Assembly (NCBI RefSeq): GCF_006345805.1
Contig: NC_043007.1
Span: forward strand, 22,196,001-22,260,000
Direction: 5' to 3'
DNA length: 64,000 nt
DNA from: Octopus sinensis
Lineage: Eukaryota
The first letter of the stretch is position 1. Each line of letters starts with the position of its first letter. The notes under the pieces were generated by a model, which was given only the letters and a program-made list of their open reading frames with translations, searched no databases and was not told the origin of the DNA. Position numbers and translations under genes: made by a program. This document shows, one piece after another, positions 9,088-57,477 of the stretch.

Positions 9088-9682
9088 TATTTCTTTATTG
9101 CCCACAAGGGGCTAAACACAGAGGGGACAAACAAGGACAAAGGGATTAAGTCAATTACATCGACCCCAGTGTGTAACTGGTACTTTATTTATCGACCCCG
9201 AAAGGATGAAAGGCAAAGTCGACTTCGGCGGATTTTGAACTCTGAACGTAGCGGCAGACGAAATACCTATTTCTTTACTACCCACAAGGGGCTAAACACA
9301 GAATGGACAAACAAGGTCAGACAAACGGATTAAGTCGATTATATCGATACCCAGTGCGTAACTGATACTTAATTTATCGACCCCGAAAGGATGAAAGGCA
9401 AAGTCGACCTCGGCGGAATTTGAACTCAGAACGTAACGACAGACGAAATACCTATTTCTTTACTACCCACAAGGGGCTAAACACAGAATGGACAAACAAG
9501 GTCAGACCAAGGGATTAAGTCGATTATATCGACCCCAGTGCGTAACTGGTACTTAATTTATCGACCCCGAAAGGATGAAAGGCAAAGTCGACCTCGGCGG
9601 AATTTGAACTCAGAACATAACGACAGACGAAATACCGCTAAGCATTTTCGCCCGGCGCGCTAAAGTGTCTGCCAGCTCGTCG
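9088..9682 (-). repeat. SINE family B head plus ~3 tandem ~184-bp units
   Basis: Reverse complement of the array at 1690-2280. Confidence 0.85.
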
Positions 9683-9974: not shown

Positions 9975-11740
9975 TATCAGGTCATTCCATAAGTTCTGTC
10001 CGATTTTACCTTCTTTAAAATTGAATGAAATTTAATAGTATTTTAGAATGTCTAATGGAATGAAAACTTATTTTTATGCATTTGTAACGGGAGAAATTGA
10101 TTTGTAAACGATATTATGAAATGTCGGAGTCAGCAGTTGTAACGATAAAAATTTGTTGTTATAATTGCATGTTGTAGGATATGAAAGATGAACAATGCAT
10201 GAAATTTTAAGGAGATATATATTTACCGATACGTTACAGTACCTTGCCTCGACGGGCAGGTTATGATAAATCCAAAAGCATGCGAAGTAAAGTTTGTGTT
10301 TGTCTCCTCTTCATTGTTTAGTAGTGATTACAGAGAGAGATAGAATGATGTAAGAGAACAGAATTAGAGCTAGTGAGAATTGTAGGGTGTTGTCTCACAG
10401 TTGCTGACGGTAAACTTCATTTCTCCCTTTGACCAAGGTTCTAGCCGGTCGGCCAGACTTCATTGTCCCTGAAGTGACTACCTGGTTGAGTGGTCGCCAT
10501 GTGACTGGACTCATTGAGTCGTCACCGACTGATTTTTGCTTGGGGTGTTCTTGTTTTTATAACTATCCAGAAGGACAGACATATCATTGAGAACAATAAA
10601 TTTAGTTGGTGGTCTTGTCATCTCTATTCTAGCCTTTGGCGAAGTAGAAGAGGTTAGAAAGGGTCAAGTGGTGAATATATTATTTCGGCCTAGCTAAAGG
10701 CATCTGGAAAATGTAAAACTGCTGTCAGAGAAAAAAAACAAAAAAAACATTGTTCCACCGTGGGAAAAGTTCTGTTGCAGTGTTAATTTAAATTTGGCTA
10801 TGGTGGATCGAATCCACTTCATGCTTGCAAGATCCACTACACATTTATGTACATTTAAACTAATTAAATATTATTTTACAGAATAATAGAATTAAAAATT
10901 CTTTGATTAAAATCCTTTCTAACATGGAAGTATCCAAAGAGCATTTGAGACACATAAAGGAAACTCTGCAGCCAAAGCGACTCGAAACATACACTCAGTT
11001 TATGGGAAAGAATGAAAGAACTTGCAGAAGATGGTTTGCAAAATTCAGAAGCGGAGATTTCAGCCTTGAAGATAAAGATCGAACAGGACGTCCAGTTGAG
11101 TTTGATGATAAACTCCTTGAGGCATTACTTAAAGAAAATCTTGCATTATCAGTTGAAGAATTGGCAATAAAGCTTAGTTCAAACCATACAACTGTTCATC
11201 GTCATCTTCAACAACTCGGAAAGATTCCTAAACTTAGAAAATGGGTGCCTCATGAATTGTCCGAAAGCAACCGCAAATCCCGAGTTGACATCTGCTCTTC
11301 ACTCCATTCTCGCAAACTCATTTCACCCTTTTTAGATAGACTTGTGACTGGTGACGAAAAATGGGTCTTCTATCGAAATGTTAAACGTCGTAAACAGAGG
11401 CTTGGTAAAAGGGAAAAAGCTCAACCACCCCCGAGAAGGGAATTTCATGGAAAAAATGTTCTTCTCTCTATCTGGTGGGATTGCAAAGGAGTAATTCACT
11501 TTGAATTGTTACCACATAATGCAACAATCAATGCTCAAGTCTACTGTCAGCGATTAGAGCATTTGAACCAAGCTTTGAAGAAAAAAATGACCCGCTTTAG
11601 TGAATCGAAAAGGAGTGATGTTTCATCAGGACAATGCGTGACTACACTGCAAAGATCACATCACAGAAGATCGAAGAACTTGGTTGGGAAAAACTTCCTC
11701 GTCCACCTTATTCTCCCGAACTTGCTCCTTCAGACTACTA
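9975..11740 (+). mobile_element. Mariner (DD34D) transposon relic, 3'-truncated; transposase pseudogene ~10924-11740
   Basis: Left TIR-like TATCAGGTCATTCCATAAGTTCTGTCCG; motifs WVPHEL, TGDEKW, HQDNA and YSPELAPSDY across frameshifts. Confidence 0.92.
10083..10841 (+). mobile_element. Solo LTR (759 bp, Gypsy-like) inserted in the mariner 5' region
   Basis: TGTAAC...CTACA termini; 4-bp TSD CATT; related sequence at ~35050-35880 and 37790-38039. Confidence 0.75.
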
Positions 11741-11869
11741 TATGGAACTCTGTCGATTGTGTGTGTGCATTTGTTCCCACCGGTTGAAAACCAGCGCTTG
11801 TTTGTATACACCTCTGTAACTTAGCGGTTCAACAACAGTTTGCACATAGAGACACGCACACACAGAACG

Positions 11870-13599: not shown

Positions 13600-15849
13600 G
13601 AGTAAAAAGATAAGCAGTTGGAAAGCAGCAGGACCTGATGGTGTATAGGGATCTTAGATAAAAAAAAAAAGAAGTTCAGTAGTTGCCATAAGTTGATCGC
13701 AGAACAATTTAATGCATTGATCAATGGAAATAAAATCGCGAGCTGGTTGACAACAGGACGAACGGTGTTGTGCCTGAAGGATACATTAAAAGGAAAATGT
13801 TGCTGACAATTACAGACCAATTTCCTGTCTCTCATTAATATGGAAGTTACTGTCAGGAGGAATTGCAGAAGAACTGTATAAATTTCTTGATGTGAACGAT
13901 ATATTACCGACGGAACAAAAAGGGTGTAGAAGGAGGTGCAGAGGTACCAAAGATCAACTGTTGATAGACAAAATGGTAATGCAAGATTGTAAACGAAGGA
14001 GAACAAATCTGGGAACGGCCTGGATTGACTATCGCAAAGCTTAGGATATGATTCCATATTCGTGGATCATCGAATGCTTAGATCTGTTTGGAATTGCGAG
14101 GACTGTAAAGTGTTTACCGAAGAGAAGTATTGTGGGATAGAAAACTGAAGTGACATTTTACGGAAAAACCTCGGGCACCCCGGGTATTAGAAGAGGGATT
14201 TTCCAGTGTGACAGCCTCTCTCTGTTGCTTTTCGTTCTCTGCATGATACCCCTGAACTTGGTACTCAGGAAAATGAACCTGGGGTACCAACTAAAGGAAA
14301 ACCCCAAACAATCAACCACCTCCTCTTCCTGGGTAATTTGAAACTGTATGGCAAAGATGAGATACAAGTGAGTTCCTTAATGAACACGGGCCACTGTCTT
14401 AGTACTGATATTAGAATGGAATTTGGACTCAAGAAGTACGGAGAAATCCACCTAAAAAGAAGTAAGGCACAATCCCTAGCAGAGATAGAATTATCGAACA
14501 GAGACTTAGTTAAGCAAATTGAAACGGAAGGATACAAATACCTTGGTGTACTAGGGTGCAACGAGATAACGGAAAAGGAAATGAAAGAGCAACTGAGGAT
14601 GGAGTATTTCCGAAGACTGAGGTTGGGGCTGCGCTCAAAAGTGACTGGATGCAATTAAATCCAAGCAATTAATACGTGGGCAATAGCATCACTTCGGTAT
14701 GGAGCGGGAATTATAAAATGGCAAAAGTGAGAAGTGAAGAAAATGGATACCAAGACCAGAAAACATGTTGGCAGTATACGGAGCTTTTCACCCTAAGAGT
14801 GACACCGATAGACTGTACTTGTCCTGAAGAAGAGGGTGGGAGAGGTTAGAATAGTTGCCAGGACTCTATCGAAGCAGAAAAAAAATGTTGTGAAGCCACT
14901 GTTGAAACACACGAAGAAGGCCGGCGCCATCAAAACTGAAAATTGTCTAATTAAAGAAAAATTTAAACAAGAGATGAACAAAAAAAAAAGAAAAGAAAAA
15001 AGAAAGAAAAAGCAGGGATGGGAAAAAATGTACGGTCAGTTTGCAAGAGATGTGAACGCCAAGACAGATACAGAGGAGCGGTGGATATGGATGAGGAGGA
15101 GTGACATGAAGATAGAGACACAAGCACTCATGCGCAGCTCAGGAACAAGTGTTAAGGACTAACTATGTGAAATGCAGAATTGACAACACTACCGATAGCG
15201 ACAAATGCAGATTGTGTGGTGAGAGGGGGTATGGCTCATCGTTAGCGAATGCCCGAAATTGGCACAACACGAATAGAAAATATGCGATGACAATGTGGCA
15301 AGAATGATTCATTGGGAGCTCTGTAGAAATCACAACTTACAAAGAGCAAAGACCGTGGTATGGACAAACTACAGGAGTCACCGTAAATGAGAATTGCAAA
15401 ATCCTGTGGGATGTAATGATCCAGTGCGATCACTTGACCAGACATAGGAAACCGGACACTGTTGTGGTAAATAAAAACAGAAAGAACATGTATGATTAGC
15501 GACATAGCATGCCCCGGTGACAACAGGATCAATGTGAAAGAAGAAAACATTAAAAAAAAACCCCAAAAACTACGACGATTTAAAGTGGGAAATACGAAGA
15601 TTGTGGTCAATGAAAAGAGTAGATGTGACACCAATAGTAATTAGTGTACTTGGAAGTATCAGCACTCAACTACCAACATGACCGAAAAAGTTCGGTGCAA
15701 GTGTGAAGGTGGATCAGCATTGCTTGAAACTGCAAGAATTCTTCATAGGGTTCTTGAAGCATGAGCAGTAAACAAGTGTCACCTTAGTCTGCTGGCAATG
15801 GACAGCTAGCACTTTCCATAATATCGAGCAAAATAAGCTCTGAGTTTTC

Positions 15850-15850
<1 letters not shown>
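13600..15850 (+). mobile_element. R4/Dong-clade non-LTR retrotransposon relic (RT + CCHC + restriction-like endonuclease), frameshifted
   Basis: [36 protein letters not shown] and RKPD motifs; lies between an (AAC/AAG/AAT)n tract and a (TAA)n tract. Confidence 0.88.
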
Positions 15851-15914
<64 letters not shown>

Positions 15915-15918
<4 letters not shown>

Positions 15919-17210
15919 AAGAGAAAATCAGGAAGGAATGTTATAGGAGAGTTCGTGCAGTCCTGAAATCTGAACTAAATGCACGTAACAAGGTGTTAGC
16001 TATAAATTCCTTAGCAGTTCCAGTTGTTACTTATAGCTACAATGTGTTGAACTGGAATATGAGTGAAGTAAAGAATATAGATAGAAAAATACGCAAGCTG
16101 CTGAGTTGTAATAGGATGCACCACCCAAAGGCAGACGTAGATCGCCTTTACCTTCCCAGAGCCCAAGGAGGTCGAGGCCTGATCCAATTTGAACTAGCTT
16201 ACAAAACAACCACAATTGGACTGGCCAAATATCTCGAAATATCGAATGACTGGATGCTAAAGCTCGTGGAAAATCACGAGAGACGAAAGAAGCTTCATTC
16301 TATCATAAAGGAAAGCAAAAAATTTGCTATTGATCTCGTGCAGGATACCCAAACTGAACAACTCGAGGGAAGTACGGCAACTATTGTTGCAAAGAAGGTG
16401 AAAATGATGGCAATGAAAAAAGCGCACGAGCAATTGGCTGATAGGTGGGAGGAGAAACCTCTGCACGGCAAATATGTGACCCGCAGCAAACAAGCTGATG
16501 TTGACCAGAAGCAAACCCATCAGTGGCTACGGAGCTCAGGGCTAAAAGCAGAGAGCGAAGGTTTCATCCTGGCTGCTCAAGATCAAAGCCTATTAACCCG
16601 GAACTACCAGGCCAATGTGATGAAAAATGGAGCAGACCCAAAATGCCGATTCTGCAACGACATGATTGAAACAGTGGACCACCTAATGTCTGGATGTAAA
16701 GTCTTAGCACCCGTGGAGTATAAATTAAGACATGACAGAGTTGGCCAATATCTCCACTGGCTAATAAGTCGGCATTACAATATCAAAACTGCCGACAAGT
16801 GGTATAATCACCACCCTGAGGCTGTAACTGAAGGAGAAAATGTAACCATTCTGTGGGACTTTCCAGTACATACACACCGAACCATCAAGGCCAATAAACC
16901 AGATATTGTTGTGAAAGACCAAAACAATAAAGTTTACTTATTGATCGACATGAGCATCCCCTGTGATCATAATATCTCAGCGAAAGAGTTTGACAAGCTC
17001 AGAAAATATAAAGACCTACTCATTGAAATTGAGAAAATGTGGCATCTCAAGGCGGTTACAATACCAGTGATCGTAGGAGCACTAGGAATGATCAAGAAGG
17101 GAACCGAAAATTATATGAGAATGATCCCTGGCTTACCATCCCTGCAAGAAGTGCAAAAGATTGTCTTAACTGGTACATCACACGTATTGAGAAGAGCATT
17201 GTCGATGTGA
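15915..17210 (+). mobile_element. 5'-truncated R4/Dong-clade LINE with an uninterrupted 431-aa C-terminal ORF (thumb, CCHC knuckle, PD-(D/E)xK endonuclease)
   Basis: CRFC...H...C, RHD, WDF, KPDIV...LIDM...K..KY motifs; flanked by (TAA)n at 15852-15915 and ~17380-17432. Confidence 0.92.
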
Positions 17211-22252: not shown

Positions 22253-23513
22253 TTAGGTCGTCAAGTATGAAATTTGTAGTAAGGTATATGGTAAACCTTG
22301 ACAGCTGTTCATTTTACACCGTTATTATATTTTGACAATCTTTATTTTTTGTTAGAAAGCTGACACATCTATTTCTTTATTCTAACTCATTTTGCGCTTT
22401 AAAAAGTATTTATAAATCGTTTTTTTGCTATTTTTGTTTAGAGATGGATAATTCGGAAATTCGTACAGTTTCTTGGTAATACAGCATCACAGACAGCTCG
22501 GAATATTAATGGAGCATTTCATTCTAATGTTACTACACAGCCGACAGTATCAAATTGTTTTGTAAAATTTCGTTCTGGTCACTTTGACCTCACAAATGAG
22601 CAACGCGGTCGACCAGAAACAAAGGTGGATAATGACGAAATGAAAGCCACCGTTGAGTCAGATCCATTTCAAAGTGCCTGTGAGTTATCGTTGTTGTTTG
22701 GTGTTAGCATGCAAACAATATTGACTCTCCTAGTTCAAATCGGCAAAGTGAAAAAGTTGGATAAGTGGGTTCCACATGAATTCAATGAAAATCAGAAACA
22801 GCAACGTTTGGAAGCCTGCATTATGCTACTTTCTCGTCATAAAATTGAATCGTTTTCGAATCGAATTGTAACATGTGATGAGAATTTGATCCAACACAAC
22901 AATTGTAAACGTCAGCACAATGGTTGAACAAAGACGAGCCACCAAAACACAGTCCAAAAAGCTAAATTCATCAAAAGAAGCTGATGGTGTGTGTTTGGTG
23001 GTCTGGCGCAGGTGTGATCCATTATGATTTCATTAAACCTAGCTCATCAGTCACGGCCGAAGTATACTGCAGCCAACTGGACCAAATGATGCAGAAACTT
23101 ACAAGGAAAAACAGCCTAGATTAGTCAACAGACCCACTCCTATTTTATTGCAAGACAACGCTAGACCACACATCGCAAAAATGACATTGGCGAAACTACA
23201 GGAATTGGAGTTGGAAGTTCTCCATCATCCATCATACTCACCTGATCTTGCCCCCACTGACTAACACTTCTTTCAGAATTTGGATAACTTTTTGATGGGA
23301 AAAAAATTAATTCCGACGATGCTATAAAACAGGCCTTCCAAGATTTTATTGACTCTAGATTGCCAGGCTTTTTTTCAGTTCCCGGCAGGACAAGCTACCG
23401 CTGAAATGGCATAAGTGTATTGACAATATGGGTGCATACTTTGATGAATAAAATTATTCTTTGTATTTATAAAACATTAGCAAACTTTTTTCTTTTCTAC
23501 AAATTTCATACTT
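22253..23513 (+). mobile_element. Mariner relic nested in the hAT
   Basis: TA + TTAGGTCGTCAAGTATGAAATTTGTAG left TIR; partial right TIR CTACAAATTTCATACTT; WVPHE, TCDE, QDNARPH and YSPDLAPTD motifs. Confidence 0.9.
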
Positions 23514-30040: not shown

Positions 30041-31315
30041 TTAGCGGTATTTCGTCTGCCGCTACGTTCTGAGTTCAAATTCCGCCGAGATCGACTTTGC
30101 TTTTCATCCTTTCGGGGTCGATTAAATAAGTACCTGTTAGGCACTGGGGTCGATATAATCGACTCCATCCGTTTGTCTGTCCTTGTTTGTCTCCTCTGTG
30201 TTTAGCCCCATGTAGGTAGTAAAGAAATAAGTATTTCGTCTGTCTTTACGTTTTGAGTTAAAATTCCGCCGTGGTCGACTTTGCCTTTCATCCTTTCGGG
30301 GTCGATAAATTTAGTAGCAGTTGCGTACTGGGGTCGACATAATCGACTCCATCCATTTGTCTGTCCTTGTTTGTCCTCTCTGTGTTTAGCCCCATGTAGG
30401 TAGTAAAGAAATAAGTATTTCGTCTATCTTTACGTTTTGAGTTAAAATTCCGCGGTGGTCGACTTTGCCTTTCATCCTTTCGGGGTCGATAAATTTAGTA
30501 GCAGTTGCGTACTGGGGTCGACATAATCGACTCCATCCGTTTGTCTGTCCTTGTTTGTCCTCTCTGTGTTTAGCCCCATGTAGGTAGTAAAGAAATAGGT
30601 TTTTCGTCTATCTTTACGTTTTGAGTTAAAATTCCGCGGTGGTCGACTTTGCCTTTCATCCTTTCGGGGTCGATAAATTTTGTAGCAGTTGCGTACTGGG
30701 GTCGACATAATCGACTCCATCCGTTTGTCTGTCCTTGTTTGTCCTCTCTGTGTTTAGCCCCATGTAGGTAGTAAAGAAATAAGTATTTCGTCTATCTTTA
30801 CGTTTTGAGTTAAAATTCCGCGGTAGTCGACTTTGCCTTTCATCCTTTCGGGGTCGATAAATTTAGTAGCAGTTGCGTACTGGGGTCGACATAATCGACT
30901 CCATCCGTTTGTCTGTCCTTGTTTGTCCTCTCTGTGTTTAGCCCCATGTAGGTAGTAAAGAAATAGGTTTTTCGTCTATCTTTACGTTTTGAGTTAAAAT
31001 TCCGCGGTGGTCGACTTTGCCTTTCATCCTTTCGGGGTCGATAAATTTTGTAGCAGTTGCGTACTGGGGTCGACATAATCGACTCCATCCGTTTGTCTGT
31101 CCTTGTTTGTCCTCTCTGTGTTTAGCCCCATGTAGGTAGTAAAGAAATAGGTATTTCGTCTATCTTTACGTTTTGAGTTAAAATTCCGCGGTGGTCGACT
31201 TTGCCTTTCATCCTTTCGGGGTCGATAAATTTTGTAGCAGTTGCGTACTGGGGTCGAGCTAATCGACTGGCACCCTCCCCAAAGATTTCGGGCCTTGAGC
31301 CTAGAGTAGAAAAGT
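30040..31315 (+). repeat. Tandem array of ~6.5 SINE-B-derived 184-bp units in intron 2
   Basis: Identical spurious ORFs 368 bp apart (30472, 30840) show the period and a dimeric higher-order pattern. Confidence 0.92.
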
Positions 31316-35920: not shown

Positions 35921-36853
35921 TCAGTTGAGACGGCGTTTCGTTGAGCCTGTCAGCCTACTCCCATGTGGGTCATGTTCTTGTACTTGTGACGGCGTTCTCC
36001 CAGGGCGGGTTGAGCCGGCTTCTCTTGTCCTGACGGCATCACGAACCATGGCGGACCATGCTCGACGGTCCTGTACGAGGTCACTGGAGATAGCGAGCCA
36101 TTCGCGGTTCCATCTGCACAGAACGACCACCTGTGGACCTGACAGTTCGGAGAGGTCCTCCTTTATCGTCGTTGCCCAGGTCTTCAGCTGCCCGCCCGTG
36201 TGTTTGCGCCAGTTGGGAAGTGGAAGTAAGAGGAGGATATCGCGAATCAGCTCACCCTCTGGACACCGGGCCGCATGACCGAACCACTTTAAGCGCCGTT
36301 GTAGAAGCACCGAAGGGAGGGGCCGGAGATTCAGACGATGACGAAGACCGGCTGTAGGAACCCGATCAATGCGTCGACAGCGAAGAATGCGGCGGAAACA
36401 GTCACTGTCGGACACCTCCAGCCTTCGCTGGTCGACTACCCCCATAGGCCATGTTTCACAACCATAGAGGAGGATAGTACGAACGACGGCCTGGTAGATT
36501 CGCCCTTTGGTCACCGAGGAGATCTCTCTTCTGTCCCAGAGGCACCGCTGGTGGCGCACGAATGCAGATCTGGCAGCACCTATGCGACGCTCGACCTCGG
36601 CTGCACCCTGGCCCGTTGGAACCACCGTTGAACCCAGATAGACGAAGGACTCCACATCCTCCGACTTCACGCCCTCGAGAACGATTGGCCGCCAGTCATC
36701 TGCTGCAATCAGAGACGTCATCACTTTGGTTTTGCCAGCATCGATCCGAAGACGAACAGCTGCCGTTGCCGCATGCACCTTTTCGAAAGCATCTTGGACA
36801 TCTGCCCGGTTAGAGCCCAAGAGCGCGATGTCATCTGCGTAGGCCAGGTCCAT
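35921..36853 (-). mobile_element. RTE-clade LINE, 5'-truncated RT C-terminal ORF (310 aa)
   Basis: LAYADDI, FVYLGS, LLYGCETW, RLKWFGH and QDRRAW motifs. Confidence 0.92.
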
Positions 36854-37112
36854 GTGGGTCGATTCTCACTAAGTGATATTTCACCACGGAATTCTAGTAT
36901 TTATAATTGTGCAGACTAGCTAGGAAAAGAGGTATACCGTTGTAACAATGGTTAAATTAATGTAGGTCACTCATTATTTATTTCAACTTTTCATGGCATA
37001 GAAAAGAGTCAAGTGGAAGACACATTCGTGCTTGACAATAGGCTGTATGGCTAAGGAGGATTTCTAGATTCGATTTCGAATCTCAAGTAAGGCCAAGTGG
37101 GGTATGTATATG

Positions 37113-37195
<83 letters not shown>

Positions 37196-37211
37196 TGTGT
37201 GTGTGTGTGTG

Positions 37212-37260
<49 letters not shown>

Positions 37261-37590
37261 GTACAACGTGAGATAGGGCTTATGAGTGGGATATCAGTTA
37301 TCCAATATACTGCCAGTGAAGTACCCAAAAGGCTAATACATAAATGCTTACAATTGCAATGCAATTATTTCATTTATTGTATTATATGTGCGAAGGTAAG
37401 ATGTGTTACCGCAAAATCATAATACAAATAAGAAAACGGAGGAACAGATTCCTCTCAATCATCAACTTACAGATATTACCAATTCATATTATTTATTCAC
37501 TACATAAACAGGTACATCCAAATCCAACAGAATAAAACAATATACATCAATAAGTAAGATAATACCATAAAAATAATACATATAAAATGG

Positions 37591-38825: not shown

Positions 38826-39143
38826 TCATAAGAAAATTAAAATTATCTAATATAGTGGCGTTTTCAAACTTCTTTTTTTACAAATATATATATATATATA
38901 TATATAATATATATATATATAATTAATTCTAGTATTATAATTGTGCAGACTAGCTAGGAAAAGAGTATACCGTTGTAACAATGGTTAATTAATGTAGGTC
39001 ACTCATTATTTATTTCAACTTTTCATGGCATAGAAAAGAGTCAAGTGGAAGACACATTCGTGCTTGACAATAGGCTGTATGGCTAAGGAGGATTTCTAGA
39101 TTCGATTCGAATCTCAAGTAAGGCCAAGTGGGGTATGTATATG

Positions 39144-39292
<149 letters not shown>

Positions 39293-39849
39293 ATAGTACA
39301 ACGTGAGATAGGGCTTATGAGTGGGATATCAGTTATCCAATATACTGCCAGTGAAGTACCCAAAAGGCTAATACATAAATGCTTACATTGCAATGCAATT
39401 ATTTCATTTATTGTATTATATGTGCGAAGGTAAGATGTGTTACCGCAAAATCATAATATATATATTTATAAATAAGGATAATATCGATATTTAAATATCG
39501 ATATTATCAAGTGGCCAGCATGGGAAAAATACCATACAAAGGTAATAATTTTTTTTACAACTAATGTATATATAGCGGTTGTATACTGTCAACTTAACGT
39601 GACAGTCCCGTAAAGGGAATCACACGACCACTATTTAGCCCTAGGAAGCATCGACGCTTCCTGTCGGCTTTGACACATTTCCTGTGTCCTTATATTTACG
39701 AAGGGGAGACAGTTAAGCACCAGTCAAATACTGGTTCGATGTAATCGGCATGTCTCCTAAAAGACTGTTGGCATTGAACCCTACAATGGACTGGCGTCTC
39801 GTTCGGTGAGGGGAGGTGCCCAGGTCACTTATACTCCATTGAAACTGGC

Positions 39850-42154: not shown

Positions 42155-42765
42155 GGATTAAGTCGATTACATCGACCCCAGTGCGTAACTGGTACTTAAT
42201 TTATCGACCCCGGTATTTCGTCTGCCGCTACGTTCTGAGTTCAAATTCCGCCGAGGTCGACTTCGCCTCTCATCCTTTCGGGGTCGATTAAATAAGTACC
42301 AGTTACGCACTGGGGTCGATATAATCGACTTAATCCGTTTGTCTGTCCTTGTTTGTCCCCTCTGTGTTTAGCCCCTTGTGGGTAGTAAAGAAATAGGTAT
42401 TTCATTTGCCGTTACGTTCTGAGTTCAAATTCCGCCGAGGTCGACTTTGCCTTTCATCCTTTCGGGGTCGATTAAATAAGTACCAGTTACGTACTGGGGT
42501 CGATATAATCGACTTAATCCGTTTGTCTGTCCTTGTTTGTCTTCTCTGTATTTCGTAACTGGTACTTAATTTATCGACCCCGTAACTACCTGTAACGTTT
42601 GTCTGTCCTTGTTTGTCTTCTCTGTATTTCGTAACTGGTACTTAATTTATCGACCCCGGTATTTCGTCTGCAATTACGTTCTGAGTTCAAATTCCACCGA
42701 GGTCGACTTTGCCTTTCATCCTTTCGGATGTTTAGCCCCTTGTGGGTAGTAAAGAAATAGGTATT
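42155..42765. repeat. Rearranged SINE family B cluster with mixed orientations
   Basis: Tandem units interleaved with inverted CGTAACTGGTACTTAATTTATCGACCCC pieces. Confidence 0.8.
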
Positions 42766-46223: not shown

Positions 46224-46660
46224 TATTTGGTTGGTAATTAATTTGGTTTTTCGCAAATAGATAGAGTTATAATTTTTTTTTTTAAATTACTTTTGTCAAT
46301 GTTATGGATGTTTCCTTTTAACATTTGATAGCCGTTACTTTAGAAGCAAATTGCACATAATTTTGTTTACAGCTGTTAGTTCAGTGTCAATTTTGACGTG
46401 GAGTGCAAAAACGAACATTTTCGCCATATTTTGTTTTTATATTTCCGTAAAGGCAAGAAAGGTGCTGAGTCTTACAAAGAGACATGTGAAGTTTATGGTG
46501 TTGATTGCTTAATTGAACACACCGTCAGAAACGGTTTTAAAAATTCCGTTCTGGAGTTTTTTCACTCAAAGATGATCAACGTTCTGGTCGACCTACTGAA
46601 GTTGATGATGACAGAATCAAAGCCATAATTGAATCTGAGTGTCGTATAACTGTGCGAGGC
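46224..46660 (+). mobile_element. Mariner 5' fragment
   Basis: ECKNEHFRHILFLYFRKGK...CEVYG and RSGRPTEVDDDRIKAIIE HTH-region motifs. Confidence 0.85.
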
Positions 46661-52240: not shown

Positions 52241-52564
52241 CATATACATTTCGAATGGTTTTGAGCAGGAGTCGGGGAACTCTTTCAACCAATTACCTCA
52301 AAATATATTTATTTATGCCGACGTTACCCACTTGATTTGAAAGGAAGAAAATCATAGATTCTTTTAATTCAAACCTTTTTGTGAATCTATTTGCAATATA
52401 ATCTATTATGAATATAAAAAGTATAAAACAAATGCAATAAAATAAATTAATATCCTCAGTATGATCCAAAAGGATTTTTCTAGAAACTTTTTCACTTCAG
52501 GTGTTGGAGAAATGATGTTTCGTTTCTTTTTTTTTCTTTTTCTTTATTCTTTCTTTCTTTTATT

Positions 52565-52964
52565 CTTTTACTTGTTTCAGTCATTTGACTGTGGCCATGC
52601 TGGAGCACCGCCTTTAGTCGAGCAAATCGACCCCGGGACTTATTCTTTGTAAGCCCAGTACTTACTCTATCGGTCGCTTTTGCCGAACCGCTAAGTTACG
52701 GGGACGTAAACACACCAGCATCGGTTGTCAAGCAATGCTAGGGGGACAAACACAGACACACAAACACACACACATACATACAAATAAATATACATATATA
52801 CGACAGGCTTCTTTTCAGTTTCCGTCTACCAAATCCACTCACAAGGCATTGGTCGGCCCGGGGCTATAGCAGAAGACACTTGCCCAAGATGCCACGCAGT
52901 GGGACTGAACCCGGAACCATGTGGCTGGTTAGCAAGCTACTTACCACACAGCCACTCCTGCGCC
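52565..52964 (-). mobile_element. SINE family A, full length
   Basis: Complete copy; same subfamily diagnostics as the 55799 copy. Confidence 0.9.
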
Positions 52965-53890: not shown

Positions 53891-54275
53891 TCTATATATA
53901 TATATATATTGTATAAAATCCGTTCTGTCTGTCTGTCTATGTGTGTGTTTTCTAGGATCTCGGGCATCCTCCATCCGATTGCGCTCAAATTTGATATGTA
54001 GATACCGACGGTATCAGGGCGTGTATAAGTCTTGAAAAAAAATTACAAAAGTCGATTCTAGGTGAGAATGCGATCAATAAAGCCGTGGGAACGTGCATTT
54101 GTACGCGGAAGTACATCAGTCGAAATCCGTTTTTTGCTGGTGTCTCAAATTTAGGTTAAATCAGTATTTCTCAAAGGGGGGGGGGGCTATGGGACGGTCG
54201 GACAAGTTGTTTTGAGAAAATTTGGTTTAAATGTTTGACAACTTAGCACCGTCCATTGGACGGGAGTTTTACTCG
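53891..54275 (+). mobile_element. Probable non-autonomous Helitron
   Basis: A|TCTATATATA...TAAAAT...(TGTC)n 5' end; 3' hairpin CCGTCCA-T-TGGACGG followed by CTCG (imperfect CTRR). Confidence 0.5.
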
Positions 54276-54282
54276 CTATACT

Positions 54283-54688
54283 CTTTACTCTTTTACTTGT
54301 TTCAGTCATTTGGCAGCGGCCATGCTGGAGCACCGCCTTTAATCGAGCAAATCGACCCCGGGATTTATTCTTTGTAAGCCAAGTACTTATTCTATCGGTC
54401 TCTTTTGCCGAACCGCTAAGTTACGGGGACGTAAACACACCTGCATCGGTTGTCAAGCAATGCTAGGGGGACAAATACACACACACACACACACAAACAC
54501 GCATGCATATATATACACATATATACGACGGGCTTCTTTCAGTTTCCGTCAACCAAATTCACTCACAAGGCTTTGGTCGGCCCGAGGCTATAGTAGAAGA
54601 CACTTGCCCAAGGTGCCACGCAGTGGGACTGAACCCGGAACCATGTGGTTGGTAAGCAAGCTACTTACCACACAGTCACTCCTGCGCC
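54283..54688 (-). mobile_element. SINE family A, full length
   Basis: Reverse complement of 35361-35775. Confidence 0.9.
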
Positions 54689-55165: not shown

Positions 55166-55420
55166 TGGAGACGCAATGGTCCAGTGGTTAGGGCAGCGGA
55201 CTCGCGGTCGTAGGATCGCGGTTTCGATTTCCAGACCGGGCGTTGTGAGCTGGGGGTGGTGGTGGTGGTGGTGGCAATCCCTGCTGTACTCTTTCGCCAC
55301 AACTTTCTCTCACTCTTTCTTTCTGTTGGTCTGCTCGCTTAGCCAGCGGGGTGGCGTCATTTGAAGGCTAAAAACAATGCGACGCGCATTGTGACCAGCG
55401 ATGTGTAACAACATCTGATA
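55166..55420 (+). mobile_element. tRNA-SINE with family D head and a third tail type
   Basis: Head matches 28873/40868; tail GCTCGCTTAGCCAGCGGGG...GCGCATTGTGACCAGCG differs. Confidence 0.75.
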
Positions 55421-55752
55421 CAAACATGCATGCATACATACATTCATACATGCACACACGTAGGGTTTATTGGGGGGAGGAAACAGTACGAGAATGCCCT
55501 GCTCACTCCCACCTCTGCTGCAACTATTAGCTACGTAATCAAGTGAAATGACTTTTTATTCCTAAGCAAAATCCAAATAAATTTTCAAATTTCTTATCGG
55601 TCAACCAAGTGACTGTACCAGCAACCCATTGGGTCCCATGTAAAAGCTTAGACGAGGGCCAGATTGAAACCAACTGTAACCCTAAACAAAGACCAACGTC
55701 AGCGTAATTACCCCCTGGCGGCTCTTAATTAAATAAGAGCTAAATGCTGACC

Positions 55753-55795
<43 letters not shown>

Positions 55796-55798
55796 ATA

Positions 55799-56178
55799 GG
55801 CGCAGGAGTGGCTGTGTGGTAAGTAGCTTGCTTACCAACCACATGGTTCCGGGTTCGGTCCCGCTGCGTGGCATCTTGGGCGGGTGTCTTCTGCTATAGC
55901 CCCGGGCCGACCAATGCCTTGTGAGTGGATTTGGTGGACGGAGGCTGGAGGAGGCCTGTCGTATATATATATATATGTGTGTGTGTTTGTGTTGCTTGAC
56001 AACCGATGCTGGTGTGTTTACGTCCCCGTTACTTAGCGCTTCGGCAAAAAAGACCCGATAGAATGAGTACTGGGCTTACAAAGAAGAAGTCCCGGGGTCG
56101 ATTTGCTCGACTAAAGGCGGTGCTCCAGCATGGCCGCAGTCAAATGACTGAAACAAGTAAAAAAAAAGAGTAAAAGAG
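55799..56178 (+). mobile_element. SINE family A copy with an A-to-G cluster, inserted in a (TAAA)n tract
   Basis: Head and tail both present; (TAAA)n on both sides; ten A>G changes in 55857-55953. Confidence 0.9.
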
Positions 56179-57477
56179 TAAATAAATAAATCCACCCCTC
56201 CATCCATCCATCCATCCCTCCCCTCCTTCAGTGGCAGATGTAGGGGTAGGCAACACCCTTTCTAGCTGAACTGATGCAAATATAATATTTCCAGCAGTTT
56301 CGCAGCATTACCGTTTCATATTGCATACGGTCTGCTACAACAAAGTTAGAATACATAAAAATGCGTCCATTTGTTACGAATTGCGATTCCCACCTTATAT
56401 AGTTTTTTTTTTTTTTCGAAACATTTGGGCAACACCCCCAACAAAATCCTGGACCCCTCCTCCATCCATCCAAACAAGCAAAATTCATTTTTCTTCCAAA
56501 CTATTTCCCCAAACCTTACCCGACACGTAGCGTCATGCTTTCTAAATTTCATAGTGTCACTGCTTCCCTTAGAAAGCAGTAATGCTGAATATTTATAAAT
56601 AGACTGAAAATTAGACCTTTCTTGCAAGACATTCCCCTGATATCATCAAACACTATTTAATGCCTTTTGTAAGTTTAATATTTAACACGAAATAGTAGAG
56701 AAAACAATATACGCAAATGTTCACAGCAACAGCATCCCCGACTTCCTACGCAACCGCTGAGCCTGGATGCGCATTCATCCATCCGTCGATGCTCTTGGTG
56801 TCGGGGGTTGACCTGCTTTCTCTTCTGCGGGTCTTACGAATAGCAAAGGACCACGTATCGGACTTCTCTCTCTACGGACGAAGACCGCTTCGCTCAACAA
56901 ACAAACACACAGCAACAGCAAAAAGAAAGAAGAAAGCAACAAAAACAAACAAACGAAAGCAGAACAAAAACGCTAACTTTCATTACAATTTACTAATGAA
57001 AAACAAAAACACCCTGTTATTAGTTAACATAGACCCATTATACATCCAGCGTTAGAAAAAAAATGTCTGTGGTTCCCTTACCTTGCTTATGTAGGGACCT
57101 GTTATTCATGTGTTTTCATTTTGAGTCGCGCATCTCTCATCACGAGCAGAAGTAGTTGGGAGCATCATAGCCATATGTTGAGAGGAATTCTTTGAGGTTT
57201 GAATAATTCACCTCTGGAAACAAACACTTATTCAGGGACCTTTTGAGCGGGATGGGTTACTCGACCTGAAGAAAATTCCAACTGGACTCCACCTGCAAGT
57301 TCATGCGCTGTTAATCATGATCGGAGATGACCACCTCACGCACTTACGGCTGTGATGCATGTGCCTGGCATACCCTTATCAGACGGGCACTCATGATGGG
57401 TGTACTGGGCTTCGCAAATTTACTCCAGTGTCACTTTGATGGCATGCACTGGTCTCTCACTCAATAATATTCGTGCA

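Follow-up and report, generated by a model that had tools for sequence, protein, structure and literature searches.

Three described systems come close to the locus reported here, as far as the excerpts of the source texts go. In retroviruses hypermutated by ADAR, clustered A>G changes stand in reverse-transcribed DNA and affect nearly half of the As of a limited region, as they do here (PMC12925331); those viruses are infectious and one case lies within an inverted repeat, whereas the present element is a non-autonomous Pol III-type SINE inherited in an animal germline. The LTR retroelements of vertebrates that were DNA-edited by APOBEC enzymes offer the same picture of a deaminase burst on a retroelement intermediate, with a strand-biased cluster that is fixed in one copy and polarised by the subfamily consensus (PMC4866542). 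Those clusters, however, consist of G>A changes due to cytidine deamination of cDNA and were absent from 19 invertebrates, whereas we deal with A>G changes in an invertebrate SINE; the excerpt of that text carries no mention of ADAR. The third system is the A-to-I hyper-editing of repeat RNA known from inverted Alus, octopus and squid, in which the type of change, the clustering and the tendency against a 5' G are the same (PMC5625713, PMC9068888, PMC9989829). Such hyper-editing is normally transient in RNA, whereas here the changes stand in DNA.

Octopus RNA hyper-editing was the strongest in a multi-species survey (PMC5625713), the ubiquitous editing of squid targets repeats (PMC9068888), and SINEs dominate octopus repeats (PMC5625713, PMC9068888 and PMC9989829 as a group), according to excerpts of these reports. 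One assay detected no A-to-I change in the L1 RNA of human cells overexpressing ADAR2 (excerpt of PMC8677026), and the role of ADAR in Alu subfamily evolution was called undetermined in part of a 2016 review (PMC4982230). Our search of the open-access literature turned up no description of a germline SINE copy in which ADAR edits had become fixed. The octopus hyper-editing survey is said to have spanned 21 species. Editing of reverse-transcribed elements is known from retroviruses; within the literature searched, the germline SINE case would be new.

The locus lies in a 64-kb stretch of octopus DNA (the window), in which blastn and alignment identified nine full-length copies of a repeat of about 400 nt (family A), including the copy under study (the target copy). 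The features that describe this copy and its closest relatives are as follows.

55799..56178, + strand: target copy, a full-length tRNA-derived SINE of family A with head, body, central (TA)n(TG)n tract, 3' domain and tail (blastn and alignment with the eight other full copies in the window)
55785..55797, + strand: left copy of a candidate 13-nt target-site duplication, within a (TAAA)n run (low-complexity DNA, only suggestive)
55809..55819, + strand: A-box-like Pol III motif, unaltered (sequence read by eye)
55852..55861, + strand: B-box-like motif, with the A>G change of 55857 at a purine position (sequence read by eye)
55857..55953, + strand: A>G tract, with changes at 55857, 55863, 55882, 55883, 55936, 55943, 55944, 55948, 55950 and 55953 (alignments and short-read contigs)
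55961..55991, + strand: central microsatellite in shortened form; after it, 23 nt present in the sister copy are deleted (alignment)
56065, + strand: further A>G change, with a 5' T, in the 3' half (A in all nine other alignment rows)
56150..56178, + strand: A-rich 3' tail with AAAAGAG(T) repeats (sequence and alignment)
56179..56191, + strand: right copy of the candidate 13-nt target-site duplication (low-complexity DNA, only suggestive)
52560..52964, - strand: unedited sister copy of the same subfamily, used as reference, with 55893G, 55902C, 55915T and 55957T (alignment)
54268..54688, - strand: nearest inverted family copy, 1.1 kb upstream, with neither a T>C nor an A>G cluster (blastn and alignment)

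The family is a dispersed, high-copy, non-coding SINE with a tail and a candidate target-site duplication, and its summed depth in short-read contigs reached 1e7. The target copy begins at the family's first base and ends in the usual tail. Full-length anatomy of this kind is expected from target-primed insertion of a Pol III-type transcript, and the precise 5' start, the tail and the candidate 13-nt duplication are in agreement with such a retrotransposition. The A-box-like and B-box-like calls were made by eye against the consensus sequences; ARAGORN and Rfam matched no tRNA or RNA family to the SINE head. The initial annotation had placed one of the changes inside the B-box, and 55857 does lie there, though at the position that we take to be the purine R57 of the consensus GTTCRANNC; since G fits this position, the change need not weaken the promoter. 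The target copy presumably resembles the Octopus tRNA-derived SINEs OK, OR1 and OR2 in its tRNA-like head with A/B-box-like motifs, length of about 400 nt, repeat tail and very high copy number. An excerpt of one report lists OR2 of Octopus as a CORE-SINE (PMC4758252). The family motif was found at 0 loci in metagenome, viral and prokaryote collections.

Several other repeats were observed in the window. A second tRNA-like head with A/B-box-like motifs, probably of a different SINE family, lies 400 nt upstream of the target copy (about 55168-55400). Pfam scanning of 57 of the 147 filtered ORFs returned seven matches to mariner, reverse-transcriptase or zinc-knuckle families, that is, transposon domains only and no host gene; remains of mariner transposase and LINE-like reverse transcriptase occur at 10864-11787, 15837-17210, 22442-22927, 35921-36865 and 46380-46625. 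A direct duplicate of 540 nt (36890-37430 and 38925-39464, 2 kb apart, the second copy between TA-rich runs) shows differences that are mainly single-base deletions, a pattern resembling either leftover errors of long reads or a duplication made during assembly. An apparent second run of ten A/G differences between these copies (36890/38925) was rejected as a misalignment of (TA)n with (TG)n. A second repeat family forms tandem arrays and short inverted pieces; its 18 copies of at least 120 nt contained no A>G cluster and had no Rfam match.

30047-31149, 1739-2257, 9088-9635, 42213-42553 and others: sites of the repeat family with a 184-nt unit

All ten A>G changes listed in the initial annotation were confirmed by alignment, with G in the target copy and A in the sister copy 52964(-) at each site. 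The claim that the tract has almost no other change was likewise borne out, as the 5' half contains no other private change. Between the target and 52964(-), 12 aligned sites differ over 55799-55962, namely the ten A>G sites and two others at which the target carries the family majority letter, indicating that those two changes belong to the sister copy. Four departures of the target from the family majority (55893, 55902, 55915 and 55957) are common to the sister copy and mark the subfamily. The direction of change is certain, since the family has A and the copy has G on the SINE sense strand; the APOBEC hallmark, sense-strand G>A, is thus not what this copy carries. Within 55857-55953 (97 bases), 10 of 22 As were changed; elsewhere in the element the figure was 1 of 65 (56065; Fisher 1.5e-6, for a tract chosen after the fact). 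Compared with each of the eight other full copies in the window, the target 5' half showed 10-13 A>G changes; those copies had 1-4 each over the whole element. Among the nine full window copies, we counted one A>G cluster and no T>C cluster on the sense strand. Two of the ten sites are not private to the target: at 55936, copy 21438 likewise has G, as do about 267 copies in run X2, and at 55882 the same letter is found in copy 59866.

We then estimated how often such a tract would be expected. The eight other full copies provided a background of 21 A>G changes among 786 As (145 substitutions in total), at which the probability of at least 10 changes among 32 As was 7e-9. The A>G count alone would be unremarkable genome-wide if this rate were doubled (0.8-4 copies expected). 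With rate multipliers of 0.5-4 for copy age and an assumed family size of one million half-copies, however, at least ten A>G changes accompanied by at most one other change were expected at most 1e-4 times per one million half-copies, and at most 0.008 times when the two non-private sites were dropped and only 8 of 30 were counted. It is therefore the purity of the tract (at most one other change), not the A>G count, that excludes chance.

The 3' half of the target copy differs from the 5' half. As read from the assembly only, it has substitutions of several kinds (56039 G>C, 56050 G>A and 56086 T>G besides the A>G at 56065), a C inserted near 56055 and, after 55991, the 23-nt deletion relative to the sister copy. 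The contrast between these mixed changes with the deletion (55991-56086) and the A>G-only 5' half possibly reflects a chimera or a later conversion.

The Gs were next sought in reads. A search of sequencing runs matched 24 runs, three of which contained at least half of the words (X1, 0.77; X15, 0.70; X2, 0.63). We matched contigs of four runs to 55846-55962 at 100% likeness; at 96% likeness, the signal was swamped by the SINE family. The following stretches were recovered.

55852..55893, + strand: four-G stretch, identical to a 42-nt X1 contig (depth 82.9, against 56.1 and 81.9 in the flanks)
55920..55962, + strand: six-G stretch, matched without a difference by a 61-nt X15 contig (depth 32.8, against 30.8 in the flank)
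55918..55949, + strand: the four Gs 55936/43/44/48, present about 2-4.5 times per genome (short-read contigs of runs X1, X2 and X15)

All ten Gs thus stand in short-read contigs (library types are not on record, X1 and X2 being guessed to be DNA), which makes an assembly artefact very unlikely. The six-G contig of X15 lies at the depth of its flank and so behaves like a fixed DNA letter. Because X15 differs from the window at 55618, it is probably from another animal. A 34-nt contig of X1 departs from the window sequence at 55950 without a branch, suggesting that the animal of X1 probably lacks that G; the G at 55950 may be polymorphic between animals. In X2, only multi-copy pieces carried the two pairs (57/63, 82/83) and the set 36/43/44/48. 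No contig of X1, X2 or X15 joined the two G groups or reached the flank, no piece joining 55863 with 55882 was found in the 80% of X2 and 76% of X15 that were read, and X1 and X2 yielded no piece over 55950-55962. Run X8, from a different organism (C), had nothing over 55846-55881 or 55946-55962; as the subfamily is nearly absent from it (depth 4.9e3 versus 1-2e6 at 55894-55901), it is not a matched control. Raw reads from about 3% of run X21 gave three matches, none over 55879-55965 or the flanks, which says only that the G version is not high-copy.

Many identical copies would have pointed to a single edited or mutated master. This was not borne out: the full ten-G pattern is about single-copy, and no large edited master was found. 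Pairs of the changes (57/63, 82/83) are present in 2-10 copies, numbers that, by a rough estimate, chance in a huge family can explain. In terms of rough depth ratios, and in a comparison that mixes runs, the G set 36/43/44 was present in about 7 copies (X15) and the set 36/43/44/48 in 2-4.5 copies (all three runs); from the approximately 267 X2 copies that have 36G, 0.19 and 0.005 copies, respectively, would be expected. The four Gs are common to 1-3 copies besides the target, and A>G clustering in this SINE family extends beyond the target copy. Either these sites are editing hot spots that were struck independently in several copies, or a source already edited gave rise to a small lineage, and the ten changes may accordingly not all stem from one editing event. 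Together, these results establish that the tract is real and inherited, that its changes are all A>G on the sense strand and that the insertion is low-copy, in short-read data that probably come from more than one animal.

ADAR disfavours a 5' G, according to excerpts of two reports (PMC5625713, PMC13015580). The count given in the initial annotation, nine of ten sites without a 5' G, was correct, but its reading as an ADAR preference did not reach significance: a 5' G preceded 1 of 10 changed and 6 of 12 spared As in 55857-55953 (p = 0.059), and the avoidance weakened to p = 0.19 over the 5' half and p = 0.27 over the element (Fisher, one-sided throughout). On the 3' side, T was found at none of the ten sites (p = 0.068), G at five (p = 0.11) and a purine at eight. 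The 5' neighbour was A or T at six sites and C at three. Prime ADAR contexts were spared, including the TAG at 55898 and all ten As of 55804-55843. The direction of the neighbour bias agrees with the published rule, ten sites being too few for proof.

We also looked for a double-stranded substrate. With the edits in place, the sequence adopts a long hairpin (55879-55960); in the fold of the 5' half, C is the partner of six of the ten new Gs and of no spared A, which resembled the preference of ADAR for A·C mismatches. This structure, as a hairpin with A·C mismatches serving as the ADAR substrate, was rejected after negative controls. The outer hairpin had a probability of about 0 before editing, its stability was ordinary (364 of 500 shuffles were as stable), and so was the number of restored G-C pairs (5 of 8 in the control; as many in 1681 of 4000 random A>G sets). 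Folding energy was as low in 119 of 10035 random A>G sets for the hairpin (beating 98.8%, in a region chosen after the fact) and in 181 of 2292 for the 5' half (beating 92%). Key hairpin pair probabilities in the 5' half were 0.02-0.05 with four Gs, 0.2-0.9 with six and about 1 with ten. No stable duplex over the tract was found within the element's own unedited fold, and the partner would therefore most likely have been another molecule, such as antisense SINE RNA, or, at the source locus, an inverted copy; sense-antisense pairing is documented in several metazoans in an excerpt of one study (PMC9989829).

The initial annotation had proposed that a hyperedited SINE RNA was retrotransposed. 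This proposal withstood two checks, the Gs being present in short-read contigs and the whole pattern not being that of a many-copy subfamily, whereas the neighbour motif was not significant and the self-hairpin failed its controls. In our view, the probable origin of the tract is germline retrotransposition of a SINE transcript that ADAR had edited; ADAR as the enzyme, a timing before insertion and the partner strand are what we infer. A SINE transcript paired with complementary RNA, most likely antisense SINE RNA, or with an inverted copy at the source locus, would have been A-to-I edited by ADAR over about 100 bases. A LINE reverse transcriptase would then have copied the edited transcript into a germline chromosome, reading inosine as G and leaving ten sense-strand A>G changes in the DNA. 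The four shared Gs would be editing hot spots, or the source copy itself may already have been edited.

An unlikely but best-surviving alternative is that the ten changes were acquired stepwise, the target belonging to a small sub-subfamily whose source had G at 55936/43/44/48 and gaining the rest later; the changes would then not be one event, and each round may still have been ADAR-made. The copy numbers are nested as such descent would have it, from about 267 for 36G through about 7 for 36/43/44G and about 2-4.5 with 48G added to 1 with 50/53G added, X1 seemingly lacks the G at 55950, and successive Gs progressively favour the hairpin in folding. Yet every one of the six further changes is still A>G, a uniformity that ordinary mutation does not explain, and short contigs cannot tell the kinship of the copies that share Gs.

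A burst of polymerase errors without ADAR is a rather improbable source of the tract. Reverse transcriptase placing C opposite A under nucleotide imbalance, or gap-filling by an error-prone polymerase of the eta/iota type, yields one-directional clustered changes and does not require double-stranded RNA, and the 3' G at five sites and the 5' A or T at six would suit it. The error densities of such enzymes, however, lie far below the 45% of As that were changed here without an indel or other substitution; a 5' C at three sites and the recurrence of the same sites in other copies also speak against it.

It is more improbable still that an insertion without edits was altered in place. Here a read-through transcript would have paired the target with the inverted copy at 54268-54688, and the edits would have been written back into DNA, whether through RNA-templated repair, through cDNA recombination or because ADAR edited the DNA strand of an RNA:DNA hybrid directly. 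ADAR can edit DNA in hybrids in vitro (excerpt of PMC12925331). The inverted copy is 1.1 kb away, and the 5' half has no other private change and the 3' half several, as if the 5' half were younger. Against this, the inverted partner has no cluster (3 T>C among 19 changes), the Pfam-scanned ORFs (57 of 147) gave no host gene, and such a route is not known to be established in germlines.

Chance accumulation or an assembly artefact is largely refuted and scarcely credible: the window is one of very many scanned, long-read-like single-base deletions occur elsewhere in the assembly and the 3' half changes are seen in the assembly only, but the expectation is at most 0.008 per million half-copies, the short-read contigs that carry the Gs have the depth of a single copy, and the known systematic trace error runs G-to-A (excerpt of PMC2873906). 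Two further candidates were rejected. Quasi-palindrome template switching does not apply, as read from the sequence, because the 3' arm is no copy of the complement of the 5' arm and the changes are A>G only. Retention of an ancestral CpG at 55857/63/82 was dismissed because other copies have CA rather than a mix of CG and TG (with one CG at 55882) and the Gs occur in few copies only.

Taken by itself, the target copy is a small case of ten sites with a weak motif; its value lies in its read support, its full-length Pol III-type anatomy and the hint of G sets common to a few copies. A wider reading, which is speculative and which we think doubtful, is that ADAR editing acts as a recurrent heritable mutagen of octopus SINEs: edited inserts would become sources, new Gs would favour a hairpin that invites more editing, and small subfamilies would be founded and driven in this way. 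The nested copy sets that share the 55936/43/44/48 Gs would then be such an RNA-editing-driven lineage in progress. If retrotransposition of an edited transcript is the true origin of the tract, a transient RNA modification became a germline mutation, the edited SINE RNA was still able to insert, and ADAR was active in germ cells or early embryos when the element inserted. The very high copy number of this octopus SINE makes it directly testable whether ADAR shapes SINE subfamilies.
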